A DNA stretch of 32,000 nt from Bdellovibrionales bacterium (GTDB lineage Bacteria > Bdellovibrionota > Bdellovibrionia > Bdellovibrionales > UBA1609): contig OY843585.1 of assembly GCA_963692945.1 (NCBI GenBank), positions 1,290,001 through 1,322,000 on the forward strand, given 5' to 3'. The notes under the pieces were generated by a model, which worked only from the letters and a program-made list of their open reading frames with translations, was not told the DNA's origin and ran no database searches. Made by a program: the position numbers and the translations under genes. The first letter of the stretch is position 1. Each line of letters opens with the position of its first letter. Shown here piece by piece: positions 1 through 25,008 of this stretch.

Positions 1-164
1 TGAAGAAATGTTCTTCCGTCTTTGTCTCTGCTATTAGGATCTGCTCCTGCTTTTAAAAGAAGATCTACTTTTTTTGCATTTTCATCTCTAGTCGCTTTAT
101 GAATCTCTTCAGCTATAACAAGAGAATTAAAAAGAAAAAAAATTGAAATTAAAAACATTTTCAT
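1..164 (-). CDS. Ankyrin-repeat protein, family 1 paralog (5' part only; gene runs off the left edge)
   Basis: Absent from the ORF track because no stop lies in the window. The reverse complement of 1-164 reads ATG AAA ATG TTT..., giving MKMFLISIFFLFNSLVIAEEIHKATRDENAKKVDLLLKAGADPNSRDKDGRTFL. This is the same signal peptide and AEEIH..RD.N leader as the complete paralogs. It is preceded by the same 42-bp junction (165-206). Confidence 0.85.
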   Translation of the reverse strand, partial: MKMFLISIFFLFNSLVIAEEIHKATRDENAKKVDLLLKAGADPNSRDKDGRTFL

Positions 165-206
165 AATAATTTAACACCTAAAAAATAATTAACTAACAAA
201 AACATT

Positions 207-1580
207 TTAAAAACTCTCACGACATTTAGAAACAGAAGAAGTTTCATTTTTTTCATTTGCACTAAGCTTGTTTTTAAGAAATTTAACAACTTCTGAACGC
301 CCGTAAAAACTTGCTTGCTGAAGAGCTGTTCTTCCATTTTTGTCTTTGGCATTAATATCAGCACCGTATTCAAGAAGAAGTTTAACAACTTCTAAATTCC
401 CTTTACCACTTGCTTTATGAAGAGCTGTATTCCCATATTTGTCTTTGGCATTAATATCAGCACCGTGTTCAAGAAGAAGTTTAACAATAACAAGTTTTGG
501 ATCTCCTTTATAACTTGCATTATGAAGAGTTGTATTGCCATATCTGTCTTTGGCATTAATATCAACACCTCTTTCAAGAAGAAGTTTAATAACTTCTAAA
601 TGACCTTTACGACTTGCTTGAAAAAGAGCTGTATTGCCATTTTTGTCCTTGGCATTCATATCAGCACCTCCTTTAAGAAGAAGTTTAACAACTTCTAAAT
701 CCCCTTTAAAACTTGCGTTATGAAGAGCTGTATTTCCATATTTGTCTTTGGCATTAATATCAGCACCTCTTTCAAGAAGAACTTTAACAACTTCTGAACG
801 CCCGTAAAAACTTGCTTTATGAAGAGCTGTATTTCCACTTCCATCTTTAACATTAATATCAGCACCGTATTCAAGAAGAACTTTAACAACTTCTAAATAA
901 CCTTTAACACTTGCGTTATGAAGAGCTGTATTTCCATTTTCGTCTTTTCTAGCATGGATATCAACACCTCTTTCAAGAAGAAATTTAACAACTTCTAAAT
1001 CCCCTTTAAAACTTGCGTTATGAAGAGCTGTGCTTCCATATTTGTCTTTAGCATTAATATCAGCATCTCTTTCAAGAAGAACCTTAACAACTTTTGGATG
1101 ACCTCTAAAACTTGCTTTATGAAGAGATGTATTACCATTTTTGTCTTTGGCCTGGAGACCAGCACCGTGTTCAAGAAAAACTTTAACAACTTCTAAATGC
1201 CCGTTAAAACTTGCGTTATGAAGAGATGTATTGCCATTTTTGTCTTTGGCATGGATATCAACACCTCCTTCAAGAAGAAGTTTAACAACTTCTAAATTTC
1301 CGTTAAAACTTGCATTATGAAGAGCTGTCTCGCCATATCCGTTTTTGGCATGAATATCAACACCGTGTTCAAGAAAAACTTTAACAACTTCTGAACGCCC
1401 GTAAGCACTTGCTTCATGAAGAGCTGTCTTTCCATGTCCGTCTTTTATATTAGGATCTACTCCTGCTTTTAAAAGAAGAGATACTTTTTTTGCATTTCCA
1501 TCTCTAGCCGCTACATGAATCTCTTCAGCTATAACAAGAGAACTAAAAAGAAAAAAAATTGAAATTAAAAAGATTTTCAT
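207..1580 (-). CDS. Exported ankyrin-repeat protein, family 1 (457 aa)
   Basis: ATG start at 1578-1580. N-terminus MKIFLISIFFLFSSLVIA|EE looks like a Sec signal peptide. About 12 copies of the 33-aa ANK consensus G.TALH.AS..G.LEVVK.LLE.GADI.AKD. Conserved tail ANEKNETSSVSKCRESF. Confidence 0.92.
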   Translation of the reverse strand: MKIFLISIFFLFSSLVIAEEIHVAARDGNAKKVSLLLKAGVDPNIKDGHGKTALHEASAYGRSEVVKVFLEHGVDIHAKNGYGETALHNASFNGNLEVVKLLLEGGVDIHAKDKNGNTSLHNASFNGHLEVVKVFLEHGAGLQAKDKNGNTSLHKASFRGHPKVVKVLLERDADINAKDKYGSTALHNASFKGDLEVVKFLLERGVDIHARKDENGNTALHNASVKGYLEVVKVLLEYGADINVKDGSGNTALHKASFYGRSEVVKVLLERGADINAKDKYGNTALHNASFKGDLEVVKLLLKGGADMNAKDKNGNTALFQASRKGHLEVIKLLLERGVDINAKDRYGNTTLHNASYKGDPKLVIVKLLLEHGADINAKDKYGNTALHKASGKGNLEVVKLLLEYGADINAKDKNGRTALQQASFYGRSEVVKFLKNKLSANEKNETSSVSKCRESF

Positions 1581-1623
1581 AATAATTTAACACCCTATAA
1601 AAAAATTAACTAACAAAAACATT

Positions 1624-2862
1624 TTAAAAACTCTCACGACATTTAGAAGAAGTTTCATTTTTTTGATTTGCACTAAGCTTGTTTTTAAGAAGTTTAACAA
1701 CTTCTGAACGCCCATAAAAACTTGCGTGCTGAAGAGCTGTTCTTCCCTTTTTGTCTTTGCCATTAATATCAGCACCTCCTTCAAGAAGAACTTCAACAAC
1801 TTCTAAATAACCTTTACCACTTGCTTTATGAAGAGCTGTATTTCCATATATGTCTTTAGCATGGATATCAGCACCGTATTCAAGAAGAATTTTAACAACT
1901 TTTAGATCTCCTTTAAAACTTGCGTTATGAAAATCTGTATTGCCATATTTGTCTTTAGAATGGATATCAGCACCGTATTCAAGAAAAAGTTTAATAACTT
2001 CTAAATAACCTTTACGACTTGCTTGATGAAGAGCTGTATTTCCACCTCTATCTTTGGCATTAATATCAGCACCTCCTTTAAGAAGAACTTTAACAGTTTC
2101 TAAATAACCTTTAACACTTGCTTTATGAAGAGCTGTATTGCCATATTTGTCTTTAGCATTAATATCAGCACCTCCTTTAAGAAGAACTTTAACAACTTCT
2201 GGATGATCTTTAAAACTTGCTTTATGAAGAGCTGTATTTCCACCTCTATCTTTGGCATTCATATCAGCACCTCCTTCAAGAAGAACTTTAACAACTTTTA
2301 GATCTCCTTTAACACTTGCTTTATGAAGAGCTGTATTGCCATACTCGTCTTTGGCATGGATATCAGCATCGTGTTCAAGAAGAAGTTTAACAACTTCTGG
2401 ATGACCTTTAAAACTTGCGTTATGAAGAGCTGTATTGCCATTTTTGTCCTTGGCATTCATATCAGCACCTCTTTCAAGAAGAAATTTAACAAGATCTGGA
2501 TGACCTTTAAAACTTGCTTGATGAAGAACTGTATTGCCATATTTGTCTTTAGCATTAATATCAGCACCGTGTTCAAGAAAAACTTTAACAACTTCTAAAT
2601 TCCCTCTAAAACTTGCTTGATGAAGAGCTGTTCTTCCGTCTTCGTCTTTTATATTAGGATCTATTCCTTCTTTAAAAAGAAGAGATACTTCTTTTGTATT
2701 TCCATCTCTAGTCGCTACATGAATCTCTTCAGCTGTATTTCCATCTCTAGTCGCTACATGAATCTCTTCAGCTCTATTTCCATCTCTAGCCGCTCTATGA
2801 ATCTCTTCAGCTATAACAAGAGAATTAAAAAGAAAAAAAATTGAAATTAAAAAGATTTTCAT
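1624..2862 (-). CDS. Exported ankyrin-repeat protein, family 1 (412 aa)
   Basis: Same signal peptide, ANK consensus repeats and KCRESF tail. The N-terminal leader AEEIH.A.RDGN. is triplicated (39-bp tandem repeat at 2695-2811). Confidence 0.92.
   Translation of the reverse strand: MKIFLISIFFLFNSLVIAEEIHRAARDGNRAEEIHVATRDGNTAEEIHVATRDGNTKEVSLLFKEGIDPNIKDEDGRTALHQASFRGNLEVVKVFLEHGADINAKDKYGNTVLHQASFKGHPDLVKFLLERGADMNAKDKNGNTALHNASFKGHPEVVKLLLEHDADIHAKDEYGNTALHKASVKGDLKVVKVLLEGGADMNAKDRGGNTALHKASFKDHPEVVKVLLKGGADINAKDKYGNTALHKASVKGYLETVKVLLKGGADINAKDRGGNTALHQASRKGYLEVIKLFLEYGADIHSKDKYGNTDFHNASFKGDLKVVKILLEYGADIHAKDIYGNTALHKASGKGYLEVVEVLLEGGADINGKDKKGRTALQHASFYGRSEVVKLLKNKLSANQKNETSSKCRESF
2695..2811. 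repeat. 3 x 39-bp in-frame tandem repeat encoding AEEIH.A.RDGN.
   Basis: Units 2695-2733, 2734-2772 and 2773-2811 (tgtatttccatctctagtcgctacatgaatctcttcagc and close variants). Confidence 0.9.
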
Positions 2863-2905
2863 AATAATTTAACACCCTAAAAAATGATTAACTAACAAAA
2901 ACATT

Positions 2906-4369
2906 TTAAAAACTCTCACGACATTTAGAAACAGAAGAAGTTTCATTTTTTTCATTTGCACTAGCCTCGTTTTTAAGAAGTTTAACAACTTCTAAATGAC
3001 CTTTAAAACTTGCTTGCTGAAGAGCTGTTCTTCCATTTTTGTCTTTGGCATTAATATCAGCACCGTATTCAAGAAGAAGTTTAACAGCTTTTGGATGACC
3101 TTTAAAACTTGCTACATGAAGAGCTGTATTGCCATGTATGTCCTTAGCATGGATATCAGCACCGTATTCAAGAAAAATTTTAACAACTTCTAAATAACCT
3201 TTACCACTTGCTTGATGAAGAGCTGTATTTCCATATCCGTCTTTGGCATTAATATCAGCACCTCTTTCAAGAAGAAATTCAACAACTTTTGGATGACCTT
3301 TATAACTTGCACTATGAAGAGCTGTATTTTTACCTCCATCTTTTACATGAATATCAATACCTCCTTCAAGAAGAACTTTAACAACTTCTGGATGACCTTT
3401 ACCACTTGCTTGATGAAGAGCTGTATTTCCATATCCGTCTTTGGCATTAATATCAGCACCTCCTTCAAGAAGAACTTCAACAACTTTTGGATGACCTTTA
3501 AAACTTGCTGCATGAAGAGCTGTATTGCCATGCATGTCTTTAGCATCAATATCAGCACCTCTTTCAAGAAGAACTTTAACAACTTCTGAACGCCCGTTAA
3601 CACTTGCTTTATGAAGAGCTGTATTGCCATATTTGTCTTTGGCATGGATATCAGCACTTTCTTCAAGAAGAACTTCAACAACTTCTGGATGACCTTTATA
3701 ACTTGCGCTATGAAGAACTGTCTTTCCATATCCGTCTTTTGCATTAATATCAGCACCTCCTTTAAGAAGAACTTTAACAACTTCTGAACTCCCAAAAACA
3801 CTTGCTTTATGAAGAGCTGTATTGCCATATTTGTCTTTGGCCTGGAGATCAGCACCGTGTTCAAGAAGAACTTTAACAACTTCTGAACGCCCGTAAATAA
3901 TTGCTTGATGAAGAGCTGTATTGCCATATATGTCTTTTGCATGGATATCAACATCTCCTTTAAGAAGAAGTTTAACAAGTTCTGGATAATCTTTACCACT
4001 TGCTTGATGAAGAACTGTCTTTCCATATCCGTCTTTGGCATGGATATCAACACCTCCTTCAAGAAGAATTTTAACAATTTCTGAATGCCCGTAAAAACTT
4101 GCTTGATGAAGAATTGTATTGCCATTTTTGTCTTTTTCATGGATATCAGCACCGTATTCAAGAAGAACTTGAAAAACTTCTAAATTCCCTCTAAAACTTG
4201 CTTGATGAAGAGCTGTTCTTCCGTCTTCGTCTTTTATATTAGGATCTACTCCTGCTTTTAAACGAAGAGATACTGCTTTTGCATTTCCATCTCTAGCCGC
4301 TACATGAATCTCTTCAGCTATAACAAAAGAACTAAAAAGAAAAAAAATTGAAATTAAAAACATTTTCAT
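2906..4369 (-). CDS. Exported ankyrin-repeat protein, family 1 (487 aa)
   Basis: MKMFLISIFFLFSSFVIA|EE signal peptide, about 13 ANK repeats, tail ANEKNETSSVSKCRESF. Confidence 0.92.
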   Translation of the reverse strand: MKMFLISIFFLFSSFVIAEEIHVAARDGNAKAVSLRLKAGVDPNIKDEDGRTALHQASFRGNLEVFQVLLEYGADIHEKDKNGNTILHQASFYGHSEIVKILLEGGVDIHAKDGYGKTVLHQASGKDYPELVKLLLKGDVDIHAKDIYGNTALHQAIIYGRSEVVKVLLEHGADLQAKDKYGNTALHKASVFGSSEVVKVLLKGGADINAKDGYGKTVLHSASYKGHPEVVEVLLEESADIHAKDKYGNTALHKASVNGRSEVVKVLLERGADIDAKDMHGNTALHAASFKGHPKVVEVLLEGGADINAKDGYGNTALHQASGKGHPEVVKVLLEGGIDIHVKDGGKNTALHSASYKGHPKVVEFLLERGADINAKDGYGNTALHQASGKGYLEVVKIFLEYGADIHAKDIHGNTALHVASFKGHPKAVKLLLEYGADINAKDKNGRTALQQASFKGHLEVVKLLKNEASANEKNETSSVSKCRESF

Positions 4370-4411
4370 AATAATTTAACACCTAAAAAAAGATTAACTA
4401 ACAAAAACATT

Positions 4412-5281
4412 TTAAAAACTCTCACGACATTTAGAAACAAAAGAAGTTTCATTTTTTTCATTTGCACGAGCCTTGTTTTTAAGAAGTGAAACTACTTTTG
4501 AACGCTTGTAAACACTTGCTTCATGAAGAGCTGTATCGCCATATCCGTTTTTGGCATTCATATCAGCACCTCTTTCAAGAAGAAGTTTAACAACTTCTGA
4601 ATAACCTTCAACACTTGCTTTATGAAGAGCTGTATTGCCATGCTCATCTTTGGCATCAATATCAGCACCTCCTTCAAGAAGAACTTTAATAATTTCTGAA
4701 CGCCCGTAAATAATTGCTTGATGAAAAGATGTATTGCCATGTATGTCTTTAGCATTAATATCAACACCTCTTTCAAGAAGAAGTTTAACAACTTCTGGAT
4801 GCTCGTAAACACTTGCTTTATGAAGAGCTGTATTGCCATATTTGTCTTTGGCATTCATATCAGCACCTCTTTCAAGAAGAAGTTTAACAACTTCTGAGCG
4901 TCCGTAAGCACTTGCTTCATGAAGAGCTGTCTTACCTTCGTTATCTTTGACATGAATATCAGCACCGTATTCAAGAAGAACTTCAACAATTTCTGAACGC
5001 CCGTAAACACTTGCTTTATGAAGAGCTGTATTGCCATATCTTTCTTTGGCATTCATATCAACACCTCTTTCAAGAAGAAGTTTAACAACTTCTGAACGCC
5101 CGTAAGCACTTGCTTCATGAAGAGCTGTCTTTCCATGTCCGTCTTTTATATTAGGATCTACTCCTGCTTTTAAAAGAAGAGATACTTCTTTTGCATTTCC
5201 ATCTCTAGCCGCTACATGAATCTCTTCAGCTAGAACAAAAGAACTAAAAAGAAAAAAAATTGAAATTAAAAAGATTTTCAT
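4412..5281 (-). CDS. Exported ankyrin-repeat protein, family 1 (289 aa, shortest paralog)
   Basis: Same signal peptide (MKIFLISIFFLFSSFVLA|EE), about 7 ANK repeats, tail ANEKNETSFVSKCRESF. Confidence 0.92.
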   Translation of the reverse strand: MKIFLISIFFLFSSFVLAEEIHVAARDGNAKEVSLLLKAGVDPNIKDGHGKTALHEASAYGRSEVVKLLLERGVDMNAKERYGNTALHKASVYGRSEIVEVLLEYGADIHVKDNEGKTALHEASAYGRSEVVKLLLERGADMNAKDKYGNTALHKASVYEHPEVVKLLLERGVDINAKDIHGNTSFHQAIIYGRSEIIKVLLEGGADIDAKDEHGNTALHKASVEGYSEVVKLLLERGADMNAKNGYGDTALHEASVYKRSKVVSLLKNKARANEKNETSFVSKCRESF

Positions 5282-5324
5282 AATAATTTAACACCCTAAA
5301 AAATGATTAACTAACAAAAACATT

Positions 5325-6893
5325 TTAAAAACTCTCACGACATTTAAAAACAGAAGAAGTTTTATTTTTTTCATTTGCACTAACCTTTTTTTTAAGAACT
5401 TTAACAACTTTTAAATGACCTTTACGAATTGCTTGCTGAAGAGCTGTTTTTCCATTTTTGTCTTTAGCATTAATATCAACATCTCTTTTAAGAAGAAGAA
5501 CTTTAACAATTTTTAGATCTCCTTTAAAACTTGCTTTATGAAGAGCTGTATTTCCATTTTTGTCTTTGGCATTAATATCAACATCGTGTTCAAGAAGAAA
5601 TTTAACAACTTCTGAATGTCCGTTAAAACTTGCTTGATGAAGAGCTGTATGGCCAAATCCGTCTTTGGCATTAATATCAGCACCGTGTTCAAGAAGAAGT
5701 TTAACAACTTCTGGATGACCTTTTTCAACAGCTCGATGAAGAGCTGTATGGCCATATTTTTCTTTAGCATGGATATCAGCACCGTGTTCAAGAAGAAATT
5801 TAACAACTTTTAAATGACCTTTACGACTTGCTTGATGAAGAGCTGTATGGCCATATTTTTCTTTGGCATTAATATCAACATCTCTTTTAAGAAGAAGAAC
5901 TTTAACAATTTTTAGATCTCCTTTAAAACTTGCGTTATGAAGAGCTGTATAGCCAGATCCGTCTTTGGCATTAATATCAACATCGTGTTCAAGAAGAAAT
6001 TTAACAACTTCTGAATGTCCGTTAAAACTTGCTTGATGAAGAGCTGTATGGCCAAATCCGTCTTTGGCATTAATATCAGCACCGTGTTCAAGAAGAAGTT
6101 TAACAACTTCTGGATGACCTTTTTCAACAGCTCGATGAAGAGCTGTATGGCCATATTTTTCTTTAGCATGGATATCAGCACCGTGTTCAAGAAGAAATTT
6201 AACAACTTCTAAATGCCTGTTAATACTTGCGTTATGAAGAGCTGTATTTCCATATTTGTCTTTGGCATTAATATCAGCACCGTGTTCAAGAAGAAGTTTA
6301 ACAACTTCTGAACGCCCGTTAAAACTTGCGTTATGAAGAGCTGTATTGCCATTTTTGTCTTTTGCATGGATATCAACATCTCCTTCAAGAAGAAATTTAA
6401 CAACTTCTAAATTCCCTCTAAAACTTGCGTTATGAAGAGATGTATTGCCATACTCATCTTTGGCATTAATATCAGCACCGTGTTCAAGAAGAGCTTTAAC
6501 AACTTCTAAATGGCCTTTATGACTTGCTTGATGAAGAGATGTCTTTCCATATCCGTCTTTAGCATGGATATCAGCACCGCGTTCAAGAAAAACTTTAACA
6601 ACTTCTAAATTCCCTCTAAAACTTGCGTTATGAAGAGATGTATAGCCAGATCCGTCTTTGGCATGGATATCAGCACCGTGTTCAAGAAGAACTTCAACAA
6701 CTTCTGAACGCCCGTAATAACTTGCTTGATGAAGAGCTGTTCTTCCGTCTTCGTCTTTTATATTAGGATCTACTTTTGCTTTTAAAAGAAGAGATACTGC
6801 TTTTGCATTTCCATCTCTAGCCAGTTCATGAATCTCTTCAGCTATAACAAGAGAACTAAAAAGAAAAAAAATTGAAATTAAAAAGATTTTCAT
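5325..6893 (-). CDS. Exported ankyrin-repeat protein, family 1 (522 aa) with internal 399-bp duplication
   Basis: Same signal peptide and tail (..SSVFKCRESF). The block HGADIHAKEKYGHTALHRAVEKGHPEVVKLLLEHGADINAKDGFGHTALHQASFNGHSEVVKFLLEHDVDINAKD occurs twice. Confidence 0.92.
   Translation of the reverse strand: MKIFLISIFFLFSSLVIAEEIHELARDGNAKAVSLLLKAKVDPNIKDEDGRTALHQASYYGRSEVVEVLLEHGADIHAKDGSGYTSLHNASFRGNLEVVKVFLERGADIHAKDGYGKTSLHQASHKGHLEVVKALLEHGADINAKDEYGNTSLHNASFRGNLEVVKFLLEGDVDIHAKDKNGNTALHNASFNGRSEVVKLLLEHGADINAKDKYGNTALHNASINRHLEVVKFLLEHGADIHAKEKYGHTALHRAVEKGHPEVVKLLLEHGADINAKDGFGHTALHQASFNGHSEVVKFLLEHDVDINAKDGSGYTALHNASFKGDLKIVKVLLLKRDVDINAKEKYGHTALHQASRKGHLKVVKFLLEHGADIHAKEKYGHTALHRAVEKGHPEVVKLLLEHGADINAKDGFGHTALHQASFNGHSEVVKFLLEHDVDINAKDKNGNTALHKASFKGDLKIVKVLLLKRDVDINAKDKNGKTALQQAIRKGHLKVVKVLKKKVSANEKNKTSSVFKCRESF
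5468..6207. repeat. Near-perfect tandem duplication, period 399 bp (4 ANK units), inside CDS 5325-6893
   Basis: 5468-5534 is identical to 5867-5933 and about 5566-5808 is identical to about 5965-6207 by direct reading. A short divergent patch lies between the identical stretches. The track's shadow ORFs 5616-5813 and 6015-6212 have identical translations. Confidence 0.9.
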
Positions 6894-6982
6894 AATAATT
6901 TAACACCTAAAAAATGATTAACTAACAAAAAGATTTTCATAATAATTTAACACCTAAAAAAAGATTAACTAACAAAAACATT
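6894..6982 (-). pseudogene. Doubled inter-ANK junction with an orphan start codon: remnant of a deleted family 1 paralog
   Basis: A normal junction is 42-43 bp. Here junction copy 6894-6931 runs into gattttcat (orphan ATG at 6938-6940, reading ATG AAA ATC TTT TT as at every paralog start). A second junction copy follows at 6941-6982. Only the first 4-5 codons of a gene remain. Confidence 0.65.
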
Positions 6983-8548
6983 TTAAAAACTCTCACGACA
7001 TTTAGTAACAGAAGAAGTTTCATTTCTTTCATTTGCACTAGCCAAGTTTTTAAGAAGTTTAACAATTTTTAGATCTCCTTTAACACTTGCTTTATAAAGA
7101 GCTGTATTTCCACCTCTATCTTTAGCATAAATATCAGCACCGTATTCAAGAAGAACTTCAACAACTTCTGGATGGCCTTTATGACTTGCTTGATGAAGAG
7201 ATGTTCTTCCAACGTTATCTTTTGCATTAATATCAGCACCGTATTCAAGAAGAACTTTAACAACTTCTGAACGCCCAAAAAAACTTGCTTGATGAAGAGA
7301 TGTTTTGTCATATTTGTCTTTAGCATGGATATCAGCACCGTGTTCAAGAAGAAATTTAACAACTTCTGAACGCCCGAAAAAACTTGCTTGATGAAGAGCT
7401 GTTTTTCCATCTTTATCTTTTGTATTAATATCAGCACCGTATTCAAGAAAAACTTTAACAACTTCTAAATAACCTTTAAAACTTGCTTGATGAAGAGATG
7501 TTCTTCCATTTTTGTCTTTGGCATTCATATCAGCACCGTGTTTAAGAAAAACTTTAACAACTTCTAAATTCCCTATAAAACTTGCTACATGAAGAGCTGT
7601 GCTTCCATATCCGTCTTTGGCATCAATATCAGCACCTCTTTCAAGAAGAACTTCAACAATTTCTGGATGCCCGAAAAAACTTGCGTTACGAAGAGCTGTA
7701 TTGCCATATTTGTCTTTAGCATGGATATCAACACCGTGTTCAAGAAGAACTTTAACAACTTCTAAATAACCTTTACCACTTGCTTGATGAAGAGCTGTCT
7801 TTCCATATCCATCTTTGGCATGAATATCAGCACCTCCTTCAAGAAAAACTTTAACAACTTCTGGATAACCTTGATAACTTGCTATATGAAGAGCTGTATT
7901 GCCATTTTTGTCTTTGGCATTAATATCAGCACCTCTTTCAAGAAGAACTTTAACAACTTCTGGACGTCTGTAAGCACTTGCTGCATGAAGAGCTGTCTTT
8001 CCATATTTGTCTTTAGCATGGATATCAGCACCGTGTTCAAGAAAAACTTTAACAACTTCTGGATGGCCTTTATGACTTGCTATATGAAGAGCTGTATTGC
8101 CATTTTTGTCTTTGGCATTAATATCAGCATCGTGTTCAAAAAGAACTTCAACAACTTCTAGATGGCCTTTATGACTTGCTTGATGAAGAGCTGTTCTTCC
8201 ATATCCGTCTTTAGCATGGATATCAGCACCGTGTTCAAGAAAAACTTTAACAACTTCTAAATTCCCTCTAAAACTTGCGTTATGAAGAGCTGTTCTTCCG
8301 TCTTCGTCTTTTATATTAGGATCTATTCCTTCTTTAAAAAAAAGAGATGCTGCTTTTGTATTTCCATCTCTAGTCGCTTCATGAATCTCTTCAGCTGTAT
8401 TTCCATCTCTAGCCACTCTATGAATCTCTTCAGCTGTATTTCCATCTTTAGCCGCTCTATGAATCTCTTCAGCTATAGCAAGAGAATTAAAAAGAAAAAC
8501 AATTGAAATTAAAAAAAATCTATCTAAAATGAAAAAAAGAAACTTCAT
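6983..8548 (-). CDS. Exported ankyrin-repeat protein, family 1 (521 aa), first gene of the array
   Basis: ATG at 8546-8548 preceded by AAGGA 8 nt upstream. Divergent longer N-terminus MKFLFFILDRFFLISIVFLFNSLAIA|EE. Triplicated AEEIH..A.DGNT leader (8357-8473), about 13 ANK repeats, tail ..SSVTKCRESF. Confidence 0.92.
   Translation of the reverse strand: MKFLFFILDRFFLISIVFLFNSLAIAEEIHRAAKDGNTAEEIHRVARDGNTAEEIHEATRDGNTKAASLFFKEGIDPNIKDEDGRTALHNASFRGNLEVVKVFLEHGADIHAKDGYGRTALHQASHKGHLEVVEVLFEHDADINAKDKNGNTALHIASHKGHPEVVKVFLEHGADIHAKDKYGKTALHAASAYRRPEVVKVLLERGADINAKDKNGNTALHIASYQGYPEVVKVFLEGGADIHAKDGYGKTALHQASGKGYLEVVKVLLEHGVDIHAKDKYGNTALRNASFFGHPEIVEVLLERGADIDAKDGYGSTALHVASFIGNLEVVKVFLKHGADMNAKDKNGRTSLHQASFKGYLEVVKVFLEYGADINTKDKDGKTALHQASFFGRSEVVKFLLEHGADIHAKDKYDKTSLHQASFFGRSEVVKVLLEYGADINAKDNVGRTSLHQASHKGHPEVVEVLLEYGADIYAKDRGGNTALYKASVKGDLKIVKLLKNLASANERNETSSVTKCRESF
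8357..8473. repeat. 3 x 39-bp in-frame tandem repeat encoding AEEIH..A.DGNT
   Basis: Units 8357-8395, 8396-8434 and 8435-8473. Same unit as at 2695-2811. Confidence 0.9.
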
Positions 8549-8616
8549 AATTTACATCCTTGTTTAAAAATGGTTCAATTATCTAACATTACTTTAGAGA
8601 GATTTTCTAATTTTTT

Positions 8617-8622
8617 ATTATA
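8617..8622 (-). promoter_or_regulatory. Candidate -10 box (TATAAT on the minus strand) upstream of the ANK array
   Basis: Plus-strand attata at 8617-8622 is a perfect TATAAT on the minus strand, about 70 nt upstream of the ATG at 8548. No convincing -35 was seen. The background is AT-rich, so a chance match is likely. Confidence 0.2.
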
Positions 8623-8673
8623 GAATGTAATTATTACACTCTACTTATTTTCTATTTGTAAAAAAACCCTATT

Positions 8674-8823
8674 TTACAGAGAAATTGGTATAAAATTACA
8701 GAGAAATTGGCTTAAATTATAGAGAAACTGGTTTAAATTACAGAGAAATTGTTATAAAATTACAGAGAAATTGGTATAAAATTACAGAGAAATTGTTTTA
8801 AATTATAGAGAAACTGGCTTAAA
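8674..8823. repeat. 7 x 21/22-bp tandem repeat (TTACAGAGAAATTGGTATAAAA family)
   Basis: Units at 8674-8695, 8696-8716, 8717-8737, 8738-8759, 8760-8781, 8782-8802 and 8803-8823. The last unit forms the final 7 codons (FKPVSL-stop) of the mevalonate kinase gene. Confidence 0.95.
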
Positions 8824-9705
8824 TTCTATTCCTAAATTCTTAGGAACTTCCCTATCCCACAAACTGATAACATAACCACCTAAACCTGAACCCGTTGGTT
8901 TGGTTGCTAAAGCCCCTGCCTCTTTTAATTTTTGACTATGAGATTCTAAATCATAAGACAATAAACTGAACTGTCTAAAACAATCTTCTCCTAAAGAAAG
9001 TCCTTCTTGTAATTTTTTCATCATGGATTCCCTATCTTCCGACATCATGGCCGACAAACAAAGTTCAACAGAACGAGCCATCTTTTCATCTATCTTAGCT
9101 AAGTCATCTTGTCGTTGACCTTTGAAAAATTTTTCCACTTTAGAGATACTAAAAAAAGTGGAAGACCTTCTTCCTGAATAAGACAGATACAAAAAAGGTT
9201 TTAATTTGGAAGGCTCTAAATACTTTTGAATTTCTCCTCCCTGAAACAACAAAGGTTTTCCTTCTAAAACAGCAGCAACATCTATTCCACTACTTTGCTT
9301 ATGAAACAAGTCCTCCAATTTTTTAGCAATCTCTTTTAAATCCTCTTTTTGAATCCAAGATTTATGCTGAAATAACAAAGCACAAGCTACAGATAAAATA
9401 GCTGAAGACCCAAGCCCTGCACCAAAAGGCACTTGGCTATCTATATAAATAACCCCTTTTAAATCTTTCCGTTTTTTATTAACTAATGCTAGAGCCTCTT
9501 CAAATAAAGGTGAAAAAGAAAAATCTAAACCAGATTGATCCTGACCACTATGCTTAATACTTAAAGGTTCCTCAGTATCTGTATAAGAAAAATCAATATA
9601 GTAGTGAGTTAAAGGAAAAACAAGAGCTGGTTTAGACCTTAAAACACTATGCTCCCCTGACAGAATCCATTTTGCATAAATTCGTTTTTTAAAATCCATA
9701 AACAC
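8803..9705 (-). CDS. mvk: Mevalonate kinase (GHMP kinase family)
   Basis: N-terminal KWILSGEHSVL matches the K.IL.GEH.VV motif of mevalonate kinases. GHMP motif II is PFGAGLGSSAILSVA and motif III is KPTGSGLGGYVI. The track start at 9705 is GTG; an ATG two codons in (9697-9699) is an alternative start. Confidence 0.85.
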   Translation of the reverse strand: MFMDFKKRIYAKWILSGEHSVLRSKPALVFPLTHYYIDFSYTDTEEPLSIKHSGQDQSGLDFSFSPLFEEALALVNKKRKDLKGVIYIDSQVPFGAGLGSSAILSVACALLFQHKSWIQKEDLKEIAKKLEDLFHKQSSGIDVAAVLEGKPLLFQGGEIQKYLEPSKLKPFLYLSYSGRRSSTFFSISKVEKFFKGQRQDDLAKIDEKMARSVELCLSAMMSEDRESMMKKLQEGLSLGEDCFRQFSLLSYDLESHSQKLKEAGALATKPTGSGLGGYVISLWDREVPKNLGIEFKPVSL

Positions 9706-14961: not shown

Positions 14962-16191
14962 TTACTTTGTCTCTTCACCAACAGATTTATTAAGCTGCGA
15001 TGAATGAAATTCATCTTTTATTATCTTTCTAATTTTTCTTTCTATATAACCTATCTCAGCCTTTTTGGAACCCCACCGTTTTGCAATTTCCTCTTGAGTC
15101 ATGAAAAGGTTTGAACCCCCCCCCTCAACAAATATACGGTTTTTAGCAATATATATATATAAATCTCTATGCTTCTCAACATGTTTTCTCAATTTCATTG
15201 TTTTTAAATGATTCATTGTCCACTCTTCAATAGGCTCTATGTGGCTTCTTCTATTTAATTCTTTATTTAAAACGACATTCTTCTTTTCCTTAGGATATCT
15301 ATTAAGCTGCGATGAATGAAACTCATCTTTTATCATTTCTCTAATTTGTTTTTCTATGTGACTTATTCTCGTTCTACTAAGACCCCACTTTTTTGCCATT
15401 TCTTCCTGTTCAATCAAATCTACACTCTCATCAGCAAATATACGTTTTTCAACAACCTCTAAATATAAATCTCTATTCTTCTTAACATCTTCTCTCATTC
15501 TCATTGTTTTTAAATGATTCATTGTCCAATCCTTAATTTGTCTTAGATAGATCCTATTTAAAAGAACATCTTCTATTCTAGTAGTTTGATTTCTACTTAA
15601 AAGTATCTCTCCTGTTTCTGCATCAGTATAATTTTTAGGGAGAACATGCCTTATTGCTCCAAGGTGTCCTATACGCTTTCTATATCTAATAATATTATTT
15701 TTAGTGCTTTTCCCTATATAGCCAGAAAGTGGAATGAGCATTCCTTTTTCTTTTCTTTCATAGTATTGTTGAATAATAATAGGAAGTTGTTTCAATCCTT
15801 CTTGAAAATAATCATCATAATGACTTCTTGAATGTCTATCATTAGAAAGGTTATAAGCTATTCTAAAAATAAGTTGAAAGTTTGAAAAATACAAAATCAG
15901 ATAAGATCTTTCATCTTTATTTTTCATATAGAATTTTACTATCTGTAATTCCTCTCCTTCTTCTAACCTAGGATAAAGACTTTTAACCTGTTGTACAGAT
16001 CCATATTTAATCATAGTCTTCAGGAATTTTAATGAGTATTTTTTATCTGAAAATTTACTATCCGTCTCAAGAATATTTTGAACTTCTTTTTGTTCTTGCT
16101 TCGCTTGAGTTTTAAAAACACCCTTGCAAGAATCTGCAAAAACATCTATTGAAAATACTGAAAAATAGACAAGAACTAAAAGAATCCTCAT
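14962..16191 (-). CDS. Sigma-70-like protein with N-terminal signal peptide and two region-4-like HTH modules (paralog 1)
   Basis: The track ORF starts at TTG 16215. The ATG at 16189-16191 (MRILLVLVYFSVFSIDVFA|DSCKG) is preferred, with AGGGATGG 9 nt upstream as in paralog 3. Region 2-like: YLILYFSNFQLIFRIAYNL...DDYFQEGLKQL. Two region 4-like modules: RDLYLEVVEKRIF..EEMAKKWGLSRTRISHIEKQIREMI and RDLYIYIAKNRIF..QEEIAKRWGSKKAEIGYIERKIRKII. Confidence 0.65.
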   Translation of the reverse strand: MRILLVLVYFSVFSIDVFADSCKGVFKTQAKQEQKEVQNILETDSKFSDKKYSLKFLKTMIKYGSVQQVKSLYPRLEEGEELQIVKFYMKNKDERSYLILYFSNFQLIFRIAYNLSNDRHSRSHYDDYFQEGLKQLPIIIQQYYERKEKGMLIPLSGYIGKSTKNNIIRYRKRIGHLGAIRHVLPKNYTDAETGEILLSRNQTTRIEDVLLNRIYLRQIKDWTMNHLKTMRMREDVKKNRDLYLEVVEKRIFADESVDLIEQEEMAKKWGLSRTRISHIEKQIREMIKDEFHSSQLNRYPKEKKNVVLNKELNRRSHIEPIEEWTMNHLKTMKLRKHVEKHRDLYIYIAKNRIFVEGGGSNLFMTQEEIAKRWGSKKAEIGYIERKIRKIIKDEFHSSQLNKSVGEETK

Positions 16192-16213
16192 AGAATAGAC
16201 CATCCCTGACACC

Positions 16214-16242
16214 AAACTAACTACAAACTAAAAATCTGTAAA
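16214..16242 (-). promoter_or_regulatory. Candidate sigma-70-type promoter for paralog 1 (TTTACA-17-TAGTTT)
   Basis: The minus strand has TTTACA (16237-16242), a 17-nt spacer and TAGTTT (16214-16219). The same arrangement is conserved in the homologous leader of paralog 3. Confidence 0.3.
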
Positions 16243-16300
16243 TACTAAGTGTAAAATCTTCACTGATTCATTAAGATAAAACCCCTATTTTTAAACACTT

Positions 16301-17563
16301 TTATTTAAAAAATGTAGAAATATCATCACTATCTTTTCTTAACTTATCAGACTTAATTTTACTTTCTATCATTCTAATAATATTGAGCTCTATCCTAGCA
16401 ACTTTAGAAATAGAAGAATTAAATCTTTCTGCAATTTTTCTAAACACAACCCTATTCTCTTTTAAACTAACAAAAACACGTCCTTCTGCGACAGCAATCC
16501 ATAAATCTCTATTCGTGCCTTTTTGCACTTGCCCTTTTTTCAACCTATTTAATGTCCAATCTTTAATCTCCTTTAAATATTTCTGATCTATAAATAAACT
16601 CTTTTTTAAAAAAGAAACATTTTTATCTTTTATGTCTTCTTTTTTTTGATCTGGCTTTTGAGTAAACTCATCTATTATCCTATCAGTTATTTGAGATTCT
16701 ATTTGTTTCACCCTCTGTGTTGTAATCTTAAATTTTTTTGCAATATTTTTTAGAGTCTCAGGCTCTCTATTTGTGAACATACGGTTTTCAGCAACATACC
16801 GCCACAATTTCCTACTTTTATCTTCTTTCTTTTTTATTATATTATTGAATGTCCAATCCTTAATTTCCTTCAAATAGATGTCATCAGTAACTTCTTTTTC
16901 TATATTAGATTTGGAACGAAATGATTCACTCTCTGTAGTAAATTCTTTTTCTACATCTTGTAATTCAACATTTTTTTGAGACACATGATTTCTCACCAAT
17001 ACATTTTTTTTCATATGTTTCTTAAGACGCAAATCAAGATTCAAACTTGCATAATTCAAAAAGGAGTTATTTTTAACAAAGTCATACTCTTTAATGGCAT
17101 TGGAAAGTATCAAGAGACCTTCTTGAAAATAATCATCATAATTCATCCCTTCACCCTCATGATATCTGATATTTTTATAACGATGAGCCATTTTAGCAAC
17201 AAGCTTGAAATGTGAAAAATACAAAACCCAGTAAGATCTTTCATCTTTAGTCTTTTGATAGTGTTTTAGCATCTGTAATTGATCTTCTTTATCCAAAATA
17301 GAGTAAGTATTCATAATACTTGATATAGAAAGAATCTGACTTGCGTTTTTGAGATAAGCTAGTGAATATTTTTTATCTAAAAATTTACTATCCGTCTCAA
17401 GAATATTTTGAACTTTTTGCTCTTGTTTAACTTGATCCTTTTGAACTTCTTTGTGTTCTCGCTTCTCTTGATCTTTAAAAACACCTTTACAAGAATGGCT
17501 AGAAAAAGCATTCCAAGATAAAAATACAAAAACAAAAAAAATGAATCTACTTATCATAAACAT
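16301..17563 (-). CDS. Sigma-70-like protein with N-terminal signal peptide and two region-4-like HTH modules (paralog 2)
   Basis: Start moved to the ATG at 17561-17563 (MFMISRFIFFVFVFLSWNAFS|SHSCKG), one nt after the TGA of paralog 3 (TGAaATG). Region 2-like: YWVLYFSHFKLVAKMAHRY...YDDYFQEGLLILSNAIKEYDFVKNNSFLNYA. Region 4-like modules: LKNIAKKFKITTQRVKQIESQITDRI and FRKIAERFNSSISKVARIELNIIRMI. Confidence 0.65.
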   Translation of the reverse strand: MFMISRFIFFVFVFLSWNAFSSHSCKGVFKDQEKREHKEVQKDQVKQEQKVQNILETDSKFLDKKYSLAYLKNASQILSISSIMNTYSILDKEDQLQMLKHYQKTKDERSYWVLYFSHFKLVAKMAHRYKNIRYHEGEGMNYDDYFQEGLLILSNAIKEYDFVKNNSFLNYASLNLDLRLKKHMKKNVLVRNHVSQKNVELQDVEKEFTTESESFRSKSNIEKEVTDDIYLKEIKDWTFNNIIKKKEDKSRKLWRYVAENRMFTNREPETLKNIAKKFKITTQRVKQIESQITDRIIDEFTQKPDQKKEDIKDKNVSFLKKSLFIDQKYLKEIKDWTLNRLKKGQVQKGTNRDLWIAVAEGRVFVSLKENRVVFRKIAERFNSSISKVARIELNIIRMIESKIKSDKLRKDSDDISTFFK

Positions 17564-17564
17564 T

Positions 17565-18614: not shown

Positions 18615-18637
18615 AGAATAGACCACCCCTTGACACT

Positions 18638-23508: not shown

Positions 23509-24732
23509 TTATTTAAAACTCTTAGCACAAGCAGATTGCTGTTTATTTTTTGAACTTTTCTTATTAGTAGAAACTTCCTCTAAATAACTAATTACCTCTT
23601 TGTTCTTGCTTTGTTTTGCAACATCAATAGCCGTTCCTCCCCATTCATTTTTAATATCCGTTTTCGCACCTTTTGCTACAAGAAGTTGTATAATCTCTAA
23701 AGATTCTTCATTAGCTGCCACATGAAGAGCTGTATCTCCATATGTATTTTTAATATTCATTTTTGCACTCTTTTCTAACAGGACTTTTACAATATCTAAC
23801 CGTTCTTGATGAACGGCGTAATGAAGAGCTGTCTCTCCAGTTTCTTTATCTTTAATATCCATATTCACATCCTTTTCTAAAAGGATTTTTATAATATTTA
23901 GATGCTCCCGCCTAATTGCTACATGAAGAACCGTCTCTCCATTTTCATTTAGAGTATCCACTTTCGCACCTTCAGCCAAAAGAGCTTCTACAATCTCTAA
24001 AGATCCTTTATCAACGGCCACATGAAGAGGACTATCTCCATATACACTCTCAACATTCACTTCTGCACCATTTTCTAACAGAACTTTCACAGTATCTAAA
24101 CTTCCTTGACGAATGACATAATGAAGAGATGTTTCTCCACCTTCATTTAGAATATTCACTTTCGCACCTTCAGCCAAAAGAACTTTTACAATATCTAAAC
24201 GCTCTTGACGAATGGCATAATGAAGAGCTGTTTCTCCTTCTTCATTTTTAATATTCACTTTCGCACCTTCAGCCAAAAGAACTTTTACAGCTTTTAAAAA
24301 TCCTTTATCAACGGCTCTATGAAGAGGTGTTTCTCTCCATTCATTTTTAGTATTCACTTCTGCACCATTTTCTAACAGAACTTTTACAATATCTAAACGC
24401 TTTTCACTAATGGCAGAATAAAGAGCTGTATTTCCATCTCTATCGGGAATATTCATTTTTGCACCTTTAGATAGAAGAATTTTTACAATTTCTAAAGATT
24501 TGTGTGTAACTGCTATATGAAGAGCTGTTTTTCCATCTTTATTTAAAAGATTTACTTCTACATCTTCAGATAAAAGGCTTGTTATGGCTTTTAAATCACC
24601 CACCCAAACAGCTTCATGAAGAGTATTTAATGGAGTGCTTTTATTGGCCATTTTAGACTGAGAAGAAACTTGGAAAACAAAACTTCCAAAAAGAATAATA
24701 TTTAAAATAAATAGTGATTTTTTAATTCTCAT
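23509..24732 (-). CDS. Exported ankyrin-repeat protein, family 2 (paralog a)
   Basis: Start set at the ATG 24730-24732 (MRIKKSLFILNIILFGSFVFQVSS|QSKMANK) by homology with paralog b. About 10 ANK repeats (G.TALH.A......IVK.LL..GAK.NI.N). Tail ..QQSACAKSFK. Confidence 0.88.
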   Translation of the reverse strand: MRIKKSLFILNIILFGSFVFQVSSQSKMANKSTPLNTLHEAVWVGDLKAITSLLSEDVEVNLLNKDGKTALHIAVTHKSLEIVKILLSKGAKMNIPDRDGNTALYSAISEKRLDIVKVLLENGAEVNTKNEWRETPLHRAVDKGFLKAVKVLLAEGAKVNIKNEEGETALHYAIRQERLDIVKVLLAEGAKVNILNEGGETSLHYVIRQGSLDTVKVLLENGAEVNVESVYGDSPLHVAVDKGSLEIVEALLAEGAKVDTLNENGETVLHVAIRREHLNIIKILLEKDVNMDIKDKETGETALHYAVHQERLDIVKVLLEKSAKMNIKNTYGDTALHVAANEESLEIIQLLVAKGAKTDIKNEWGGTAIDVAKQSKNKEVISYLEEVSTNKKSSKNKQQSACAKSFK

Positions 24733-24794: not shown

Positions 24795-24937
24795 ACAAAA
24801 CTCTCGTTCAAAAAAGCATTTTTAACTCTTATTTTAATGAGCTTTTCATCGCAAGAGAGACGCTCTTCAAATCTCATTAAAATAAGAGTTGCTTAATAGG
24901 TTTATGTTTGAACTAGAGAAAACCTACTGGTTTTCGC
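24795..24937 (-). repeat. Structured repeat element, about 145 bp (left copy, inverted relative to 26957-27102)
   Basis: It is the reverse complement of 26957-27102 at roughly 90% identity by eye. It contains a perfect 18-bp stem (24824-24841 with 24873-24890, 31-nt loop) and ends in the 18-bp palindrome copy. Confidence 0.85.
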
Positions 24938-24982
24938 ATGAAGGGTTTTGTTCTTCAACCTCAAAAAGTAAAAAAGGTATTC

Positions 24983-25008
24983 CTAGAGAAAACCTACTGG
25001 TTTTCGCA
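24983..25008. repeat. Solo copy of the palindromic motif CTAGAGAAAACCTACTGGTTTTCGCA
   Basis: Identical to 24913-24938. Core is GAAAACC-N4-GGTTTTC. Confidence 0.85.

Follow-up and report, generated by a model that had tools for sequence, protein, structure and literature searches.

At the left edge of a 32-kb stretch of DNA (32,000 nucleotides, hereafter the window), genes encoding ankyrin-repeat (ANK) proteins with near-identical ends follow one another head to tail, raising the question of how such an array is built and maintained, and of what its products might bind. The host is a low-GC, small-genome, uncultured bacterium related to the Bdellovibrionota/Oligoflexia.

Organization of the array and architecture of its products

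Examination of positions 1-8548 revealed six complete exported-ankyrin genes and one gene cut by the window edge, all on the minus strand. The list of open reading frames bears out an initial annotation of the sequence, both in this arrangement and in the lengths of the complete products (289-522 aa). As the left end of the array lies beyond the window, its size of at least seven genes is a lower bound. The genes are as follows:

1..164, minus strand: g7, the edge-cut paralog, first 54 codons, starting at 164 and running past the left window edge
207..1580, minus strand: g6, 457 aa, with signal peptide, N-cap, 11 internal ANK units, C-cap and a tail ending KCRESF
1624..2862, minus strand: g5, 412 aa, with signal peptide, N-cap with its first helix triplicated, 9 internal units, C-cap and tail
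2906..4369, minus strand: g4, 487 aa, with 12 internal units
4412..5281, minus strand: g3, 289 aa, with 6 internal units
5325..6893, minus strand: g2, 522 aa, with 13 internal units
6983..8548, minus strand: g1, 521 aa, promoter-proximal, with 12 internal units, a variant N-terminus and its own Shine-Dalgarno site (AAGGA)

In each of the six complete genes, the reading frame is intact. Plus-strand open reading frames within the array (60-125 aa, e.g., 3212-3589) were rejected as genes, being by-products of the repeat. A foreign origin on the basis of base composition was likewise rejected, given that the GC content of the array (0.34-0.36) matches that of the window and that its GC3 (0.12-0.14) falls below the 0.17-0.23 seen in housekeeping genes. 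In the 32-kb window, neither Rfam nor tRNA scanning gave a match.

Each of the six complete products comprises a Sec-type signal peptide, an N-cap, 6-13 consensus-like 33-aa units and a C-cap followed by an 18-aa tail. Ankyrin repeats run throughout each protein (59 internal in-register 33-aa units overall), with Pfam Ank/Ank_2 E-values of 1e-63 to 1e-161 over 7-14 matched stretches in all six. The variation in repeat number initially described stands, with the count itself corrected from about 7-14 units to 8-15 repeats per protein, caps included. Assignment to the Pfam Ank clan, whose tandem 33-residue units bear a G-x-T-(A/P)-L-H motif and stack as helix-turn-helix-hairpins, draws on Ank, Ank_2 and Ank_4 matches, the in-register units, PDB sequence matches (the best being to ankyrin-R and DARPins) and a solenoid model. 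Specifically, the AlphaFold2 model of g3 is a confident eight-repeat solenoid (pLDDT 90.9), from which the tail protrudes as a helical extension of lower confidence.

The signal peptides follow a common pattern (MK, then IFLISIFFLF, then SSLVIA, with EE after the predicted cut), with a hydrophobic core of 10-12 residues, a maximum 12-residue Kyte-Doolittle mean of 2.3-2.6 and V-I-A before the predicted cut. Neither a second hydrophobic segment nor an N-terminal Cys was found in the array proteins. Judged by rule, namely, a basic n-region, a hydrophobic core of 7-15 residues, small residues at -3/-1 and no lipobox Cys, these are Sec/SPase I signals. One signal peptide had initially been assigned to the entire array; this holds for the paralogs other than g1, including g7 (MKMFLISIFFLFNSLVIA before EEIH), whose N-cap is more divergent. 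By contrast, g1 starts 24 nt further upstream, adding 8 residues, such that its signal peptide reads MKFLFFILDRFFLISIVFLFNSLAIA before EEIH. From these features, the array products probably cross the inner membrane via Sec and are cut after V-I-A. The proteins had also been described as secreted, of which export across the inner membrane can be retained; secretion from the cell is not something that a Sec signal shows.

Spacers, transcription signals and recombination

The spacers of the array and the region upstream of it contain the following features:

165..206, minus strand: 42-bp junction between g7 and g6, comprising TAA, an invariant core, a T-run, an AGGTG Shine-Dalgarno-like site and ATG
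1581..1623, minus strand: 43-bp junction between g6 and g5
2863..2905, minus strand: 43-bp junction between g5 and g4
4370..4411, minus strand: 42-bp junction between g4 and g3
5282..5324, minus strand: 43-bp junction between g3 and g2
6894..6982, minus strand: 89-bp double junction between g2 and g1, a normal junction plus a 47-bp duplication
8549..8802, minus strand: presumed promoter region of 254 bp, with a TATAAT hexamer (about 8610) and a weak -35
8671..8825, minus strand: seven tandem copies of a 21-22-bp unit, absent in relatives

The five 42-43-bp junctions lie where they had first been placed, in a list that missed the sixth, double junction. There, a 47-bp unit consisting of the junction and the first 14 nt of the ORF is present in 2.2 copies, yielding a 16-codon mini-ORF whose overlap with the g2 start reads ATGA. 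The 37-nt spacer core, TGTCGTGAGAGTTTTTAAAATGTTTTTGTTAGTTAAT, occurs in six exact copies, as compared to none expected from shuffles, and a Shine-Dalgarno-like AGGTG or AGGGTG lies about 10 nt ahead of each ATG in the array. When the coding strand was scanned, neither a sigma-70-like promoter nor a terminator-like hairpin was found in any junction, in agreement with the earlier view of the junctions as offering ribosome-binding sites without an obvious promoter. As junction RNA structure also did not exceed that of shuffles (z = -0.2 and +1.1), we rejected a hairpin for termination or processing. The region at 8549-8802 is indeed the sole long non-coding stretch upstream of the array, as previously stated. 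The 21-22-bp copies at its upstream end each reproduce the terminal five codons of the mevalonate kinase gene together with its stop (KP(V/I)SL*).

Because the paralogs lie on one strand, with Shine-Dalgarno-like sites of their own and short spacers presenting no promoter or terminator signal or RNA structure, features expected in the sequence of an operon, which further entails one transcript, the simplest reading is that the array is probably a single transcription unit initiated in the 254-bp upstream region. We accordingly infer co-transcription of the array.

Tandem Repeats Finder recovered the 99-bp periodicity noted at the outset, over positions 276-8293. Averaged over the 59 internal 99-bp units, identity within genes amounts to 0.820, as compared to 0.812 between genes, and no positional orthology of units between genes was detected past the first unit. 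At the DNA level, the signal-peptide codons are 93-100% identical across the array genes, the final 20 or so nt of each gene and the junction core are identical, and synonymous diversity is zero at 19 of the 33 codon positions of the ankyrin unit. Further duplications are seen within genes:

5394..6215, minus strand: recent tandem duplication in g2 at an offset of 399 bp (four units), with copies at 5793-6215 and 5394-5816
2695..2812, minus strand: 39-bp repeat in three copies in g5, the triplicated first N-cap helix
8357..8474, minus strand: 39-bp repeat in three copies in g1, found by tandem-repeat detection

The two copies in g2 are identical at 406 of 423 positions, including 248 bp without a mismatch, and exact tracts of 40-107 bp are common to different genes at differing positions. 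Since its products, namely, the 399-bp duplication, the 47-bp junction duplication, the 39-bp triplications and the shared exact tracts, are visible in the sequence, unequal recombination, as proposed in the initial annotation, is more than a possibility. This mode of evolution is seen again in one relative, where two tandem ANK genes with signal peptides are 98-99% identical over the first 184 or so nt and 66-77% identical thereafter.

Variable positions and distribution of the family

Amino-acid entropy of the units is highest at positions 2, 3, 5, 10, 13, 14, 16, 17 and 26. At the DARPin library positions (2, 3, 5, 13, 14 and 33), chosen a priori, pN is 0.347 as compared to a pS of 0.157 over all codons, a ratio of 2.2 (bootstrap 2.0-2.5) that is rough, as the units compared exchange sequence, and possibly inflated, since homogenization lowers pS. 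The nine most variable positions include five of these six (hypergeometric P = 0.003). The exceptions are position 33, an invariant Lys, and positions 16, 17 and 26, which vary despite not being classical binding positions.

At the syntenic site in two relatives (ThrS identity of 80% and 73%), the array is absent, with mevalonate kinase being followed directly by a Na/Ala symporter. Searches of 5.8 billion proteins, GTDB species genomes, JGI metagenomes and viral contigs turned up no protein with the array ends. With a full-length paralog as query, all matches were generic ANK proteins that differed at their ends and did not exceed 50% identity, and a profile restricted to the array ends likewise recovered nothing but generic ANK proteins, all short. 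The 37-nt junction core was absent from metagenome contigs, and protein-pattern scans of metagenome and viral contigs gave only generic N-cap matches; the sole match covering the N-terminus (L033) was rejected as an unrelated high-GC ANK gene. Within the reach of these searches, the tandem array is lineage-specific.

A probable repertoire of exported binders and its alternatives

How, then, might these observations be explained? With somewhat better than even confidence, we view the locus as a lineage-specific, concertedly evolving tandem family of at least seven genes for exported ankyrin binders, in which one chassis carries many surfaces. Following Sec export and cleavage after V-I-A, the mature product would be a pure ankyrin solenoid of 8-15 repeats with a Cys-containing tail. 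The locus would evolve through homologous recombination among its own repeats, with gene conversion and unequal crossing-over holding the signal-peptide codons, tail, spacers and framework codons near-identical. The same recombination would alter the number of units and probably that of genes, as selection keeps the residues of the canonical ankyrin binding surface different between units. The outcome would be a repertoire of exported binding proteins sharing a common chassis and presenting many surfaces, whose targets may be foreign molecules belonging to a host, a prey or a competitor.

The neighborhood of the array adds context. Its upstream neighbor is the mevalonate kinase gene, its neighbors being genes of the mevalonate pathway, and no secretion-system, toxin, peptidoglycan-hydrolase or host gene was found in the 32-kb window, beyond whose left edge the array continues. 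An effector role for the array proteins finds no direct support here. The type IV-secreted ankyrin effectors of Legionella, Coxiella and Anaplasma are defined as lacking a Sec signal, being translocated through a signal at the C-terminus and coming from genomes with a Dot/Icm or VirB system, whereas all members of the array have Sec-type signals and the window contains no type IV secretion genes. Two other kinds of diversified locus were considered and rejected. An integron would have an integrase and cassettes separated by attC sites in the form of imperfect palindromes; junction structure did not exceed shuffles and no integrase ORF was found in the window. A diversity-generating retroelement would have a reverse transcriptase and a paired template and variable repeat; no reverse transcriptase-like ORF was found in the window, and variation is spread over about 60 units instead of one variable region.

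The best-studied ankyrin proteins with Sec signals, RARP-1 of Rickettsia, AnkB of Pseudomonas and Bd3460 of Bdellovibrio, turned out to be periplasmic (bioRxiv 10.1101/2022.02.23.481736; PMC8289219). Like the array proteins, they begin with a Sec signal that precedes ankyrin repeats, Bd3460 coming from the same phylum. They differ in that each is encoded by a lone gene whose partner or context is defined, none lying in a tandem array and none with a reported diversification signature; no DD-endopeptidase or catalase gene lies beside the array. Among better-known expansions, those of Wolbachia, Legionella, Coxiella, Orientia, Rickettsia and sponge symbionts likewise comprise many eukaryote-like paralogs in a reduced low-GC genome, which recombine and vary in repeat number (PMC3563639, PMC3932732). 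Those genes are mostly scattered, often multi-domain, and their products delivered by type IV systems without a Sec signal. In contrast, the array, in a Bdellovibrionota relative, encodes pure ANK proteins with Sec signals, head to tail, with invariant spacers and ends. The F-box/LRR expansions of Parachlamydiaceae, an example of concertedly evolving repeat-protein families, are likewise lineage-specific tandem interaction-module genes in a host-dependent bacterium (PMC4209131). They differ in fold and phylum, and in the array 5' end, 3' end and spacer are homogenized to near identity. Comparable in build are DARPins (designed ankyrin repeat proteins), whose paratope principle has been described (PMC8683736): caps and stacked consensus 33-aa units with a near-constant framework and diversity at positions 2, 3, 5, 13 and 14. 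The array proteins differ in being natural, longer (8-15 repeats) and exported, in having a C-terminal Cys tail, and in their fixed Lys at position 33 and additional variability at positions 10, 16, 17 and 26.

An alternative that we consider rather unlikely is that the array is a periplasmic immunity or inhibitor repertoire neutralizing envelope-attacking enzymes or toxins, the cell's own or those of competitors, modeled on Bd3460 and Imm-ank. A Sec signal delivers to the periplasm only, and diversifying selection would suit a toxin-antitoxin arms race equally well. Bd3460 is an ankyrin immunity protein from the same phylum (PMC8289219), and Imm-ank proteins and homogeneous polyimmunity loci, arrays of related small binders, some ankyrin, that evolve against toxins, have been described (PMC3482391). 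Bd3460-type self-protection entails co-location with the inhibited DD-endopeptidase, whereas the neighbors of the array are mevalonate-pathway genes. Imm-ank genes are expected directly after polymorphic toxin genes or cassettes, or in among them; the window, past whose left edge the array runs, contains no toxin domain, gene or cassette. Known ankyrin immunity proteins are also much smaller than the 8-15-repeat proteins of the array. Were the products instead mere amplified housekeeping scaffolds of the periplasm without diversified function, as RARP-1 and Pseudomonas AnkB, which act there on self partners, might suggest, the absence of the array from the syntenic site of relatives, the lack of orthologs in the protein databases searched and the over-representation of amino-acid changes at binding positions would be hard to accommodate, making this explanation very improbable.

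Homogenized ends, variable middles, recombination footprints, a single conserved terminal Cys and homopolymer tracts (T8 inside signal-peptide codons, T6-7 and G2-3 in spacers) are also consistent with a variable surface-protein (contingency) locus, in which Cys-tethered products would be displayed and recombination or homopolymer slippage would switch that display, evading host immunity, grazers or phages. Loci of this kind are defined by simple-sequence tracts that differ in length within a population and thereby turn genes on or off. Yet none of the six complete genes is disrupted or out of frame, T-runs are commonplace at a genomic GC of 32% and the proteins present no outer-membrane anchor or known surface-sorting domain, such that we regard this account as distinctly unlikely. 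Finally, given such repetitive sequence, including a perfectly duplicated 248-bp stretch, a shorter true locus might have been expanded or scrambled through mis-assembly of the 99-bp repeats. This can hardly be credited, as each gene has its own order of distinguishable, approximately 81%-identical units, reading frames are all intact and an analogous tandem pair is found in the independent assembly of a relative. Moreover, a record with 100% identical ThrS comes from a 1.56-Mb contig, probably the source of the present sequence, suggesting a long-read assembly. The sigma-factor-like protein likewise has a 100% identical entry in the protein libraries.

Returning to the exported binder family, its tail deserves consideration. 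The common ending of about 20 aa initially reported was confirmed in all six complete genes (...SAN(E/Q)(K/R)N(E/K)TS..(K)CRESF). Each protein contains one Cys, in the tail, within a C-x-x-x-F motif, and a bacterial N-glycosylation sequon (E-x-N-x-T) occurs in five of the six tails. The same window encodes two divergent exported ANK proteins, the tails of which contain no such sequon:

23509..24732, minus strand: A7, 407 aa, whose tail, ...SACAKSFK, has a single Cys
25071..26330, minus strand: A8, 419 aa, with the tail ...SNCAKTFCRNCES

C-x-x-x-F also appears after the signal peptide in sigma-factor-like proteins of the same genome and after the signal peptide in exported ANK, Sel1 and TPR proteins of one relative (L017, the only one of five relatives' loci examined in which it was seen), the link between tail and N-terminal motifs resting on a five-residue pattern. 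CaaX prenylation, as in Legionella AnkB, depends on a Cys that sits exactly four residues from the C-terminal end and has two aliphatic residues after it; it was rejected, as Cys here lies five residues from the end and precedes R-E-S-F (A-K-S-F-K in A7). A lipobox was rejected because of where the Cys lies and what surrounds it, and a literature search for a 'CxxxF' signal found nothing relevant. The motif may tether or sort the array proteins after export. A bolder proposal, which we deem unlikely, is that terminal C-x-x-x-F serves this uncultured clade as a sorting or tethering signal that acts after Sec and has no earlier description, marking alpha-solenoid binders (ANK, Sel1, TPR) and sigma-factor-like proteins with signal peptides for delivery to prey or host, the ANK array being its fast-evolving, recombination-diversified, DARPin-style arm. 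Should C-x-x-x-F prove to be a sorting signal, the entire set of proteins secreted by the clade could be defined with its help, and these bacteria might conceivably be delivering transcription factors to other cells.

Bacterial ankyrin expansions as such are already well known. What the array shows unusually clearly is how a bacterium builds and maintains a repertoire of protein binders, with a chassis uniform at the DNA level, change concentrated at DARPin library positions and repeat number visibly changing. Found in an uncultured, small-genome branch related to predators, it points to what this lineage invests in.

Organization of the ankyrin-repeat array

ORF listing placed six complete array genes on the minus strand of 1-8548 and a seventh gene at the left window edge, in agreement with the initial annotation, which had described six complete genes and one edge-cut gene on one strand.

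Genes of the array encoding exported ankyrin-repeat (ANK) proteins
start at 164, running off the window, minus strand: g7, seventh paralog
207-1580, minus strand: g6, 457 aa
1624-2862, minus strand: g5, 412 aa
2906-4369, minus strand: g4, 487 aa
4412-5281, minus strand: g3, 289 aa
5325-6893, minus strand: g2, 522 aa
6983-8548, minus strand: g1, 521 aa, promoter-proximal

Pfam assigned ankyrin over the entire length of all six complete proteins, and in-register cutting revealed a common plan in each, namely, a hydrophobic leader of 20 residues with V-I-A at its end, a 26-residue N-cap (EEIHxAARDGNAKxVSLLLKAGVDPNIK), 6-13 internal units of 33 aa (99 bp), and a C-cap whose helix 2 continues as the tail SAN(E/Q)(K/R)N(E/K)TSS(V)x(K)CRESF. 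The shared tail noted earlier was thus seen, as a ...CRESF pattern, in every complete protein. The claim that each gene encodes the same signal peptide did not hold for g1, whose start differs, being extended by eight residues and preceded by an AAGGA site specific to this gene. The first helix of the N-cap is triplicated (39 bp) in g1 and g5. The best solved-structure matches by sequence were ankyrin-R/B and designed ankyrin repeat proteins (DARPins). AlphaFold2 modelled the 289-aa protein as a confident eight-repeat solenoid (pLDDT 90.9), with the tail as a less confident helical extension.

The five junctions described earlier as near-identical are indeed 42-43 bp each, but a sixth, at 6894-6982, had been missed, being 89 bp long through duplication of a 47-bp unit (the spacer with the opening 14 nt of the ORF). 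A 37-nt core, which extends from the final codons through the stop and half of the spacer, its first half, recurs exactly in each of the six junctions, vs 0 expected, and AGGTG or AGGGTG lies some 10 nt 5' of the ATG in each spacer. Scans of the coding strand revealed no promoter-like or terminator-like sites in any spacer, and spacer RNA folded no better than shuffles. Hence, no obvious promoter location remains other than the 254-bp region upstream of g1, where TATAAT is present and the -35 is poor. The earlier reading of the junctions as offering a ribosome-binding site without a promoter, in an operon-like layout, was accordingly upheld, and the array genes are predicted to be co-transcribed.

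In all junctions, the 11-mer AAAAT(G/C)TTTTT is found just 3' of every stop and at every start codon (ATGAAAATGTTTTT), and the ends of the 47-bp duplication fall in this microhomology. The spacer resembles a degenerate copy of the 5' end of an array gene and holds an 11-codon mini-ORF (MFLLVNHFLGC). A T8 run occurs within signal-peptide codons (ATT TTT TTT CTT) at the 5' ends of g2-g7, and T6-7 and G2-3 runs that differ among copies occur in the spacers (5282-5324 region). As candidate slipped-strand sites, these runs could turn single paralogs on or off.

Homogenized framework and variable positions

Among the array genes, signal-peptide codons share 93-100% identity, and the final ~20 nt of every gene are identical, as is the spacer core. 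The 59 internal units show a mean identity of 81%, being 0.820 within a gene vs 0.812 between genes, with positional correspondence among genes limited to the first unit. Synonymous variation is zero at 19 of the 33 codon positions of the unit, among them three Leu codons that invariably read CTT, against a general preference of the genome for A/T-ending codons; the framework has therefore been homogenized in DNA, beyond mere protein conservation. Exact tracts of 40-107 bp are common to different array genes, often at differing repeat positions, and g2 carries a 399-bp tandem duplication of four units (406/423 identical, 248 bp perfect). The 399-bp, 47-bp and 39-bp duplications arose directly by unequal recombination, or by slippage, in the 99-bp register and, together with the shared tracts, bear out the unequal recombination initially proposed.

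Amino-acid entropy peaks at positions 2, 3, 5, 10, 13, 14, 16, 17 and 26 of the unit. DARPin libraries were reportedly randomized at positions 2, 3, 5, 13, 14 and 33 by Binz and colleagues in 2003. Positions of that kind form the paratope (PMC8683736). These six served as an a-priori test set, thereby avoiding post-hoc choice of sites, and five of them were among the nine most variable positions (P = 0.003). At the six positions pN was 0.347, vs a pS of 0.157 over all codons (ratio 2.2; bootstrap 2.0-2.5), a rough estimate given the exchange of sequence among units. Even so, homogenization alone is unable to lift non-synonymous divergence over synonymous. Selection for differing binding surfaces on a uniform scaffold would be the simplest explanation.

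Array age and the C-x-x-x-F motif in the clade

ThrS identity to database relatives was 70-89%, and the nearest named matches, at 64-68%, were Oligoflexia, Bdellovibrionaceae/Pseudobdellovibrionaceae and Bdellovibrionales MAGs. The loci of five relatives are likewise low in GC (0.33-0.37, with one at 0.48). In two relatives, with ThrS identities of 80 and 73%, the backbone is retained as infC-rpmI-rplT followed by mevalonate genes, and in both, mevalonate kinase is directly followed by a Na/Ala symporter, with no ANK gene there. Neither the array leader nor the tail was detected elsewhere in 5.8 billion proteins, GTDB species genomes, JGI metagenomes and viral contigs. Together, these results argue for the array being a recent, lineage-specific expansion. 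The same evolutionary mode recurs in L017, a relative's locus (ENA ERZ25072174 contig_35, 75% ThrS identity), where two signal-peptide ANK genes lie in tandem, with 98-99% identity across their initial ~184 nt and 66-77% beyond.

A 21-22-bp unit is present seven times in tandem at 8671-8825, the first copy being the true mevalonate kinase 3' end (KPVSL, stop) and the others encoding KP[V/I]SL-stop, each unit with TATAAT or TGTAAT. The repeat is absent in the relatives, in which the Na/Ala symporter comes next, and could be an integration site at the array boundary, reused or duplicated, or a slippage product. A REP/MITE-like hairpin element, TAGAGAAAACCTACTGGTTTTCGC, with the stem GAAAACC/GGTTTTC, occurs in eight copies at 24914-25007 and 26507-26980; these intergenic regions, which flank two divergent ANK genes, also contain inverted repeats of greater length (aactcttattttaatgag / ctcattaaaataagagtt). 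In the IF3 gene, an 18-bp repeat at 18892-19030 (7.7 copies, 97% identity) encodes a C-terminal (SSGVKP)n extension; IF3 in two relatives' loci (L016 and L061) is 148-150 aa, too short for it, and IF3 of other relatives has 189-253 aa.

All six complete array proteins contain a single Cys, five residues from the C-terminus (C-R-E-S-F). The two divergent exported ANK proteins of the window end in ...SACAKSFK (23509-24732) and ...SNCAKTFCRNCES (25071-26330). In other proteins, C-x-x-x-F follows the signal peptide, 2-8 residues past the likely cleavage site. Three sigma-70-like paralogs that match regions 2 and 4 only weakly (14962-18626, minus strand), situated between infC and rpmI and so interrupting the otherwise conserved infC-rpmI-rplT operon, begin with a signal-peptide-like segment followed by their only Cys, in D/H-S-C-K-x-V-F-K. 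About 19 full-length relatives of this family (~30% identity) were found in other genomes, and 13 of 16 inspected had the leader and the motif. In L017, C-x-x-x-F was present in all six exported repeat proteins.

Exported repeat proteins of L017
557-1792, 1-533, 8958-9836 and 14013-16609: three ANK, two Sel1 and one TPR protein

The infC-rpmI gap of L017 is filled by three exported repeat genes and two lipoprotein genes, and looks like a hot spot for exported-protein genes in the clade. The loci of four further relatives showed no example of the motif, and the closest retrievable relative (L015; GCA_029782575.1, JARPSI010165435.1; 89% ThrS identity) encodes small signal-peptide ANK proteins without it near thrS; the contig numbers of this assembly run past 165,000, which is suggestive of a metagenome or host genome assembly. 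A lipobox was ruled out, given the polar or charged residues preceding the Cys, and a CaaX box was rejected; a literature search for such a signal returned nothing. C-x-x-x-F was taken as a putative terminal motif with a link to export in some of the clade. This is an argument, drawn from a short pattern, that the invariant array tail may serve a function, such as tethering or sorting, and is not simply a passenger of gene conversion.

Possible roles of the exported repertoire

The evidence supports the array as a predicted repertoire of exported binders. Diversifying selection argues for a counter-evolving target, be it a host, prey, competitor or toxin, and this is compatible with both an effector- or adhesin-like role and an immunity role. 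The full statement, that this is a repertoire directed at non-self targets, ranks first and is somewhat favored overall. The lack of any secretion system in the window speaks against an effector role. A Sec signal delivers only to the periplasm. RARP-1, AnkB (bioRxiv 10.1101/2022.02.23.481736) and Bd3460 (PMC8289219) offer precedents for ankyrin proteins that stay there, and diversifying selection fits a periplasmic immunity repertoire as well (PMC3482391); with no toxin or hydrolase gene in the 32-kb window and the array proteins being very large, such a repertoire is nonetheless considered rather unlikely. Variable surface display is improbable, a housekeeping scaffold is more doubtful still, and an assembly artefact hardly credible.

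The sigma-factor-like proteins, which bear the same signature of export, are a circumstantial hint that the organism sends proteins into another cell with a bacterial-type RNA polymerase; exported sigma-like proteins would be very unusual. Overall, the initial observation stands after small corrections and its interpretation is partly supported: unequal recombination and an operon-like arrangement are borne out, and secretion past the periplasm and effector activity would be candidate readings. The array itself belongs among the bacterial ankyrin expansions, an already known kind, and stands out for its clean concerted evolution, its DARPin-like variable positions and its C-x-x-x-F tail.
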